Below are positions 50,871 through 50,915 of a DNA stretch of 64,000 nt, piece by piece (position 1 is the stretch's first letter; each line of letters begins with the position of its first letter). The DNA comes from Escherichia coli (GTDB lineage: Bacteria > Pseudomonadota > Gammaproteobacteria > Enterobacterales > Enterobacteriaceae). The DNA is taken from assembly GCF_044324785.1 (NCBI RefSeq), contig NZ_CP172127.1. One strand, 5' to 3'. A program made the translations under genes and the position numbers. The notes under the pieces were generated by a model. The model searched no databases and was not told the origin of the DNA. It saw only the letters and a program-made list of their open reading frames with translations.

Positions 50871-50915
50871 CTCCCTGATAAAGAAAACAGACCACCATCA
50901 GGGAGGTCTGTTTTC
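50871..50915. terminator. Two overlapping, mutually exclusive hairpins (terminator-like inner stem)
   Basis: Outer CTCCCTGAT(50871-79)/ATCAGGGAG(50897-05); inner AAAACAGAC(50884-92)/GTCTGTTTT(50906-14); the outer 3' arm lies in the loop of the inner hairpin. Confidence 0.4.

Follow-up and report, generated by a model that had tools for sequence, protein, structure and literature searches.

A 99-nucleotide (nt) gap between a STY4534-family gene and a 67-codon open reading frame (orf67), which is followed in turn by ssb, lies in a chromosomal integrative conjugative element (ICE) of the SPI-7 type, within the 64-kb stretch of Escherichia coli DNA that was analysed as a whole (contig NZ_CP172127.1, hereafter the window). 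The segment from 50869 to 50945 is read here, with a probability of about 0.55, as the 3′ end signal of STY4534 combined with a structured two-state 5′ leader of orf67 and ssb, in which a terminator-type hairpin is fused to a bistable relay that masks a ribosome-binding site. Two mutually exclusive hairpins (H1 and H2) and a third helix (H3) make up this leader, and the three helices, their conservation, the covariation within H1 and H2, the predicted masking of the Shine-Dalgarno (SD) sequence and a preference for one or the other state that depends on transcript length are established by computation. As judged from the predicted folds, the two-state leader probably limits the expression of both orf67 and ssb.

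Two competing hairpins and a third helix

The first-pass annotation of this DNA had described an outer and an inner inverted repeat that cannot form together, and both were found where it had placed them, with arms that extend further. The outer repeat, with the core CTCCCTGAT (50871-50879) and ATCAGGGAG (50897-50905), grows to CCTCCCTGAT/ATCAGGGAGG (50870-79/50897-906), in which 10 of 10 positions are paired and to which a G50869·U50907 wobble is added; this is H1, a hairpin of 11 base pairs (bp) with a 17-nt loop and an energy of −17.8 kcal/mol when taken alone. The inner repeat, with the core AAAACAGAC (50884-50892) and GTCTGTTTT (50906-50914), belongs to H2, whose 16-nt arms AAGAAAACAGACCACC and GGAGGTCTGTTTTCTT (50881-96/50902-17) are 94% complementary, being interrupted by a single A·A mismatch and separated by a 5-nt gap. 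Five strands, lettered A to E from 5′ to 3′ (Table 1), describe the arrangement: H1 is the pairing of A with C, H2 is that of B with D and the outer half of C, and H3 is that of D with E. Strand C supplies the loop of H2 with its 5′ half and the top of the H2 3′ arm with its 3′ half, and since the 3′ arm of H1 sits between the arms of H2 and overlaps one of them, the nested helices are mutually exclusive, as the annotation had held. A pseudoknot joining H1 with the B:D pairing is topologically possible, and was set aside as implausible on steric grounds, since a helix of 11 bp would have to be bridged by 0-4 nt.

Both structures proved stable when the region was folded as RNA, a check that the annotation had itself proposed. 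The minimum free energy (MFE) of a 100-nt RNA is −28.7 kcal/mol (z-score −4.0) and corresponds to H1 together with H3, and that of a 57-nt RNA is −21.3 kcal/mol (z-score −4.3) and corresponds to H2; in each case 0 of 200 shuffled sequences were as stable. The composite motif occurs once in the window, against an expectation of 0.

A direct repeat, 82% identical, also flanks the first hairpin (TTTTCTCACTG at 50859-50869 and TTTTCTTATTG at 50911-50921). The U-rich stretch 5′ of H1 resembles the anti-SD strand 3′ of H1 and could pair weakly with the A-rich loop of H1, a pairing that reached −0.5 kcal/mol in a scan of the nascent chain.

H3, which the annotation had overlooked, joins the U-rich anti-SD strand D to the ribosome-binding region of orf67 (50909-18/50936-45). 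Strand D has two alternative partners, B (giving H2) and E (giving H3), and it is also the start of the U-run TTTTCTTATTGTGTTT at 50911-26; strand B is purine-rich and mimics the orf67 ribosome-binding region. Strand E contains the SD of orf67 (AAGGA, 50937-41), upstream of the start codon at 50950-52, and in the predicted ensemble this SD is base-paired, with a probability of 0.02 of being unpaired in the window. Across homologues of the locus, the predicted median for the SD hexamer is 0.02 in 26 dual-hairpin leaders versus 0.39 in 65 other leaders, and H1 with H3 is the predicted fold of the full leader in nearly all homologues. On these predictions, masking of the SD by H3 is a distinguishing property of the dual-hairpin leader type. 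H2, as the pairing of B with D, competes for the anti-SD strand, and this competition is supported by covariation, shuffling and permutation of partners (see below). Given that strand D can also engage the ribosome-binding site of orf67, the initiation of translation is no less likely a point of control than read-through.

In leaders of other types at this locus, the ribosome-binding site of the following gene is masked by different routes. In Xenorhabdus bovienii (L026), the partner of the SD-containing GAUAACAGGGGA is the U-rich UUUCUUCUUUAUUAU, located immediately 3′ of the terminator hairpin, and the predicted SD accessibility is 0.13. In Salmonella enterica (L205), a U-rich segment immediately 3′ of the stop codon forms a helix with AAGGAAAUA that encloses a single H2-like hairpin, and SD accessibility is predicted at 0.05.

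The stop codon of STY4534 lies 18-19 nt 5′ of H1, and the stable, G+C-containing stem-loops H1 and H2 start 18-30 nt past it. That the inner stem ends in a U-run, as the annotation had noticed, holds good: the core of H2 has terminator anatomy, with the U-run directly 3′ of it, and a consensus terminator scan, which left H2 of the window uncalled (it carries the A·A mismatch), called it terminator-like in the E. coli homologue L004. H1 should be the first hairpin to form and should then persist; it lies itself 3-4 nt 5′ of the U-run, and it is not a clean antiterminator. A promoter scan of the window and of L004 turned up no sigma-70-like site in the gap from the STY4534 stop codon to orf67, so the expression of orf67 and ssb seems to rely on read-through. 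The suggestion that the hairpins gate read-through into ssb is compatible with this promoterless gap and has to be amended as to its target, since the gene directly gated is orf67; ssb takes that place in two lineages (L014 and L190), where the same leader is fused directly to it. A promoter yielding transcripts that lack strand A was also considered and dropped, the −10-like strings picked out by eye being weak and unconserved.

The predicted MFE structure changes as the chain grows, from H1 (3′ ends at 50903-13) to H2 (50915-41) and then to H1 with H3 (50943 onward). An RNA ending at the U-run prefers H2 (−21.3 versus −17.8 kcal/mol in the window), in the full leader H1 with H3 is the more stable (−28.7 versus −25.2 kcal/mol), and the nested refolding from H1 to H2 meets a barrier of about 22 kcal/mol. 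A two-state scheme can be proposed from these folds. In state I, H1 would form once strand C leaves the polymerase and, standing 5′ of the U-run, would act as a terminator-type hairpin, and in the transcripts that read through, strand D would pair with the orf67 ribosome-binding site; with H1 and H3 in place, the default would be doubly off, by termination and by a masked SD. In state II, strand B, the mimic of the ribosome-binding site carried in the H1 loop, would capture D and the outer half of C to give H2, which would free the ribosome-binding site of orf67 in read-through RNA and would seal the 3′ end in a 16-bp duplex in RNA ending at the U-run. Since the two states are close in energy and the refolding barrier is high, the choice between them probably falls while the RNA is being made, or depends on a factor that renders strand A unavailable by blocking or removing it, for which RNA processing or a trans-acting RNA or protein would be candidates. 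That transcripts terminate here, that translation is repressed and that a trigger exists, whatever its kind, we infer from these modelled structures.

Several specific triggers and sensors were considered and rejected. A ribosome halted at the STY4534 stop codon would leave a gap of 14-19 nt to strand A, which should be beyond its reach given the established footprint sizes. An RNA thermometer of the fourU or ROSE-like kind does not fit, the predicted probability that the SD is unpaired being flat (0.04-0.07) over 20-50 °C. GGA sites of the CsrA type can be found in strand C (CAGGGA) and strand E (AAGGA), and the GGA in C is mostly base-paired in both states.

Table 1. Positions of the leader elements, of the related leader L′ and of the genes around them
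Feature	Positions	Strand	Basis or detail
Strand A, H1 5′ arm (GCCUCCCUGAU)	50869-50879	+	pairs with 50897-50907
Strand B, H1 loop and H2 5′ arm (AAGAAAACAGACCACC)	50881-50896	+	inverted repeat, MFE of 57-nt RNA
Strand C, H1 3′ arm (AUCAGGGAGGU)	50897-50907	+	fold, inverted repeat
H2 3′ arm (GGAGGUCUGUUUUCUU)	50902-50917	+	fold, inverted repeat, covariation
Strand D, U-rich anti-SD strand (UGUUUUCUUA)	50909-50918	+	in H3 of the 100-nt MFE fold
Strand E, orf67 ribosome-binding region, H3 3′ arm (UAAGGAAACA)	50936-50945	+	fold
Leader L′, upstream of the STY4534 start	50296-50388	+	covariance model, folds
Hairpin H1′	50306-35	+	
Alternative pairing H2′	50310-24 with D′	+	
Anti-SD strand D′	50338-53	+	
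SD/start strand E′	50372-88	+	GGAGA 50374-78, AUG 50386-88
STY4534-family “ICE replication protein” (DUF3577), upstream gene	50386-50850	+	NCBIfam NF040584, RefSeq annotation
orf67, 67 codons, hypothetical protein, directly behind the leader	50950-51153	+	hypothetical coding sequence in RefSeq homologues
ssb, ICE single-stranded DNA-binding protein, own GAGGAGG ribosome-binding site	51166-51723	+	

Conservation, covariation and a related leader before STY4534

Homologous loci were collected from E. coli genomes, from one-genome-per-species contigs (73 loci), from metagenomes (62 gene ends) and from named protein clusters. The metagenome gene ends were found by a pattern on the C-terminus of STY4534, so that this sampling was blind to hairpins. 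A strong hairpin follows the STY4534 stop codon in 98 of 98 distinct homologous segments, starting at a median of 12.5 nt past the stop, and a crude T-run rule was passed by 69 of the 98; a terminator-type hairpin is therefore common ground at this position. The dual-hairpin architecture was found in 25 distinct leaders, which come from E. coli (three types), Klebsiella, Edwardsiella, Mixta, Cedecea, Serratia microhaemolytica, three Xenorhabdus loci and metagenomes, and in most lineages orf67 is kept 3′ of it.

Pairs were counted in an N-padded, motif-anchored alignment (A4) of these 25 leaders, an alignment made with MAFFT (A3) having mis-registered several loops. In A4, 95.6% of the H1 cells (columns 2-11) are paired, and two pairs (nine cells) are changed on both sides, from U-A to G-C and from C-G to U-A; the covariation score of H1 is 0.199 against a shuffle mean of 0.135, was reached by 0 of 500 shuffles (counts that, the leaders being related in sequence, are not probabilities) and compares with 0.083 for the best slid register. 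For H2, 88.5% of the cells are paired and seven pairs (20 cells) are changed on both sides, with a score of 0.208 against a shuffle mean of 0.139, likewise reached by 0 of 500 shuffles, and a best slid register of 0.088. The stem core CCUGA/UCAGG is invariant in 25 of 25 leaders. The strand shared by the two hairpins offers a double case: in L004 and L005, an 80%-identical E. coli variant, GGGAGG in strand C is changed to GGGCGG, and this change is compensated both in A (CCUCCC to CCGUCC) and in B (CCACC to CUGCC). G·U wobbles are frequent, so that the pairs fit the plus strand only, which is the mRNA sense.

Two alignment-free comparisons were made as well and gave results in line with the pair counts. 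Shuffling the H1 loop 1000 times never yielded an H2 as stable as the natural one in 12 of 17 lineages tested, and when the B and D strands of different lineages were permuted, the cognate pairs had a mean energy of −17.0 kcal/mol versus −13.1 ± 0.8 kcal/mol for the permuted partners, with 0 of 2000 permutations reaching the cognate value. On this comparative evidence, both hairpins are maintained by selection; in most lineages their energies lie within about 4 kcal/mol of each other.

Simpler forms of the element occur at the same place. L203 and L205 have an H2-like hairpin only, and in L201 (Enterobacteriaceae bacterium ESL0689, 1176-1228) the H1 stem closes a short loop that is devoid of the B insert (CCTCCCTGAAATTTTCAGGGAGG then TTTTTCTTCT), which makes the hairpin a textbook terminator, with a different and unrelated gene next to it. 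The sequence of L201 suggests that the B insert and the SD-masking partner are gained or lost as a unit.

A covariance model built from H1 and H3, which recovered its 25 training leaders at 56-90 bits, also matched just 5′ of the STY4534 start at nearly all loci, with scores of 15-32 bits that are weak and consistent in position. The leader found there (L′, Table 1) has a strong helix that sequesters the SD GGAGA and abuts the AUG, and the predicted median probability that this SD is unpaired is 0.003 in 88 distinct sequences from across Enterobacterales, in which the leader is conserved. The loop and 5′ arm of its hairpin H1′ are complementary to the anti-SD strand D′, and in RNA truncated 5′ of E′ this alternative pairing, H2′, is favored over H1′ (−25.0 versus −18.2 kcal/mol). 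The variable H1′ loop covaries with the variable part of D′, the cognate energy being −12.5 kcal/mol as against −10.0 ± 0.3 kcal/mol for permuted partners (0 of 2000). The plan of a hairpin, an anti-SD strand and an alternative pairing is present before STY4534 in all lineages examined, and L′ is not in Rfam. Its recurrence and covariation argue against H2 being an accident of an A-tract meeting a U-tract. As far as these sequence comparisons go, STY4534 is flanked by two related leaders, in which the alternative pairing of loop and anti-SD strand is recurrent and selected.

Weighing the alternative explanations

A simpler account is possible, if doubtful: the segment would be a plain, strong intrinsic terminator of the STY4534 transcript, with a canonical H2, with H1 redundant on the same U-run, with H3 incidental and with no switching at all. 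H2 resembles one: its stem (CAGACC.CC/GG.GGUCUG) is G+C-rich, closes a loop of 5 nt, follows an A-rich 5′ flank and leads into the U-run UUUUCUUAUU, 30 nt past the stop codon. Homologous loci carry plain terminators at the same place: a hairpin stands right after the stop in every one of them, usually with a T-run next, L201 makes do with H1 alone, L203 and L205 with the H2-like hairpin, and the scan called H2 of L004. The lack of covariation in H3 also speaks for this account. It leaves unaccounted for, however, the compensatory upkeep of both helices, including the double compensation in the shared strand, the near-isoenergetic H1 and H2, and an SD masking that is specific to the leader type (0.02 vs 0.39); the same alternative pairing recurs before STY4534, where no upstream gene ends, and a fully efficient terminator would silence orf67 and ssb, which have no promoter downstream of it. 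An ordinary terminator also differs from the present arrangement in that here the earlier-forming H1 competes for the same 3′ strand and encloses the 5′ arm of H2 in its loop, and in that the U-run pairs with the next ribosome-binding site.

A delayed-folding mechanism, as described for the maturation gene of MS2 (PMC4615214), is unlikely. In it, H2 would be metastable and would briefly hold the anti-SD strand, so that ribosomes would load on nascent transcripts only, before H1 and H3 silenced the message. The predicted succession of H1, H2 and H1 with H3 along the growing chain speaks for it, as does the truncated L′, which folds as H2′ and in which strand displacement from the H1′ loop could reach H2′. 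In the orf67 leader, however, H1 forms before strand D is made, and the nested barrier should make H2 hard to reach in time.

The first-pass annotation had compared the arrangement to an attenuator or a riboswitch-like switch, and the part of this that stands is the architecture: a terminator and a competing helix are mutually exclusive, with overlapping arms, one of them has a U-run, and both are conserved and covary. A sensor, in which a ligand, a leader peptide, a tRNA or a protein-binding aptamer would choose between antiterminator and terminator, has a slim chance, and the riboswitch comparison was given up. Rfam searches of 49500-52000 at E values up to 10 left the leader unmatched and returned only the STAXI motif upstream and Phe_leader on the opposite strand (E 7.2), and at the gathering score only STAXI, again upstream, was found in the whole window. 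The stop codon and H1 are only about 20 nt apart, and what is conserved is a pair of plain hairpins that have neither a junction nor a pocket, with no riboswitch aptamer found in it. No leader peptide with regulatory codons, T-box or protein site was found; there is no conserved small open reading frame, and the frames through the leader differ among homologues, for which reason stop-codon read-through or a +1 frameshift into the conserved CCCUGA was also rejected. The first-formed H1, moreover, itself precedes the U-run.

The hairpin and U-tail directly after the stop codon could alternatively constitute the body of a 3′-end-derived small RNA of the STY4534 transcript, with CCCUGA/UCAGGG and the A-rich loop as binding or seed elements. 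The invariant stem core and the A-rich loop would suit such a molecule, whereas the partners of every variable position lie inside the leader and the element is coupled to the ribosome-binding site that follows it, which leaves this origin improbable. Least credible is a role in single-stranded DNA, in which the hairpins would work on the ICE strand being transferred or replicated, as a signal for priming, for instance. The ICE replication genes beside STAXI and the strand-specific pairs agree with it, and such a role was once discussed for STAXI (PMC2864571). Against it stand the many G·U wobbles, which are poor pairs in DNA, the precise placement relative to the stop codon, the SD and the start codon, and the absence, on reading the sequence, of promoter-like hexamers rebuilt by the hairpin.

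The reading preferred here, a terminator-type hairpin fused to a relay that masks the orf67 ribosome-binding site, has its own difficulties. Folding predicts that H1 appears first and that a high barrier separates it from H2, which makes it hard to see how full-length RNA would populate H2, and no trigger was found, the search for an aptamer, a leader peptide, a promoter or thermometer behaviour in the leader having been negative. In H3, 82.9% of the cells are paired among homologues and the core hardly varies, and the helix shows no covariation beyond that of shuffled alignments (347 of 500 reach its score); its pairing could be, in part, a U-run meeting a purine-rich ribosome-binding site. 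The alignment A4 was anchored by hand on motifs by an author aware of the proposed pairs, and a bias toward these pairs is possible. H2 is weak in L006, L162, L190 and L065, H1 is weak in L015 and L093, and many related elements have one simple hairpin at this position.

Genomic setting, known systems and significance

The region is identical in E. coli chromosomes in which it is annotated as part of a SPI-7-type ICE, with genes for dnaB-PI, parB, STY4528, topoisomerase III, STY4534, a hypothetical open reading frame, ssb, Rpn, pilL and traD; E. coli TUM1886 and GF60 are among the strains with the identical element. The STY4534-family protein matches NCBIfam NF040584 with 197.9 bits against a cut-off of 160. 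An OB-fold of the SSB type is possible for this protein, with no line of evidence being significant: its AlphaFold model has low confidence (pLDDT 53) and a beta-beta-beta-alpha-beta-beta order, the Foldseek matches are weak (E 0.07 or higher) and enriched in OB-fold proteins, SSB and PriB, no sequence relative was found in the PDB, and the invariant C-terminus Y-A-E-N/D-S-F is reminiscent of the acidic tip of SSB, which ends in IPF. The orf67 protein matches no Pfam or NCBIfam family, and 12 nt separate orf67 from ssb. In E. coli NCTC9112 (L003), an 18-nt tandem duplication (AACATATGAACCGTCAAA twice, at about 2063-2098) covers the start region of orf67 and duplicates its start codon, and an IS1414 transposase gene stands upstream in place of topB.

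Upstream, the gap between topB and STY4534 holds two adjacent matches to STAXI (RF01728; 49955-50261, 61.6 and 66.3 bits), with three near-identical pseudoknot-type repeat units that have UUCG loops, and a terminator-like hairpin (49877-49898) lies between topB and these matches. Directly after ssb, a terminator-like hairpin was called on both strands at 51733-51750 (on the plus strand, TGGGGCGATACGCCCCA then CTTTTTTATC), and the gene of an Rpn-family nuclease follows. With this last hairpin, the units topB, STAXI-STY4534 and orf67-ssb are each bounded by hairpin and T-run signals. Relatives of the leader were found neither in viral contigs nor in plasmids.

The terminator/antiterminator attenuators (trp-type, T-box and the riboswitch platforms) likewise use exclusive helices that share strands, one of them with a U-run, 5′ of genes, whereas in the orf67 leader no leader peptide, aptamer or known protein or tRNA site was found, the upstream helix leaves the U-run in context, and the output appears to include SD masking. 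Delayed folding, in the 5′ untranslated region of the MS2 maturation gene and in type I toxin mRNAs such as hok and Helicobacter pylori aapA3 (PMC4615214, PMC6733600), also involves an anti-SD strand with two partners, of which a local one is favored in the shorter chain and the SD in the full chain, and a final state that is closed to translation. The orf67 leader, by contrast, has no sequence or Rfam relationship to these systems, lies between two genes, overlaps a terminator and has its local partner inside the loop of the first-formed hairpin. In the IncI-alpha and IncB plasmids, translation of repZ or repA is activated when a loop pairs with a downstream strand, the two structures existing together in a pseudoknot under the control of an antisense RNA and a leader peptide. 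There, too, an upstream hairpin has a loop complementary to the strand that otherwise shuts the ribosome-binding site of a replication gene, again on a mobile element. The PK-repZ pseudoknot (its Rfam description is quoted in PMC12370729) differs in that the complementary strand of the orf67 leader abuts the hairpin, which makes a pseudoknot sterically implausible, and in that no antisense RNA or leader peptide was found here. STAXI, a tandem pseudoknot repeat of unknown function (PMC2864571), shares the neighbourhood of topoisomerase, ssb and ICE genes, its two matches lying 600-900 nt upstream of the hairpins; H1 and H2 have a different architecture, and no STAXI match falls within 50851-50950.

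No description of the orf67 leader was found in the literature searched. In kind, it belongs with the known alternative-hairpin leaders. Its wiring is new, in that one strand serves as the terminator U-run, as the anti-SD strand and as the partner of an SD mimic encoded in a loop, and so is the duplication of the unit around one ICE gene. The outcome is a compact element that is supported by covariation and absent from Rfam, together with a more widespread paralogue before STY4534, and for both leaders clear predictions follow for mutants that disrupt the stems and for those that compensate. STAXI gains a structured neighbour, which may be on the same transcript. Were the segment only a terminator with extras, it would still be an example of two hairpins that compete on one U-run, with the U-run doubling as an anti-SD strand.

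The silencing and the dosed expression of replication and transfer genes in ICEs of the SPI-7, PAPI-1 and ICEclc types are only partly understood, and to our knowledge control at the level of RNA is essentially undescribed in them. It may be proposed, tentatively, that SPI-7-type ICEs carry an undescribed family of co-transcriptional folding relays, made of a hairpin, an anti-SD strand and a loop-encoded SD mimic, which would be present once before STY4534 in all lineages examined and duplicated before orf67 and ssb in a subset of them, and which would act as timers or bistable gates on the translation of replication genes. If this is true, translation would be confined either to transcripts still being made or to cells where the blocking strand has been taken away by an ICE factor or by RNA processing, and the relays and the adjacent STAXI repeats would form one RNA-based control module of the replication cluster.

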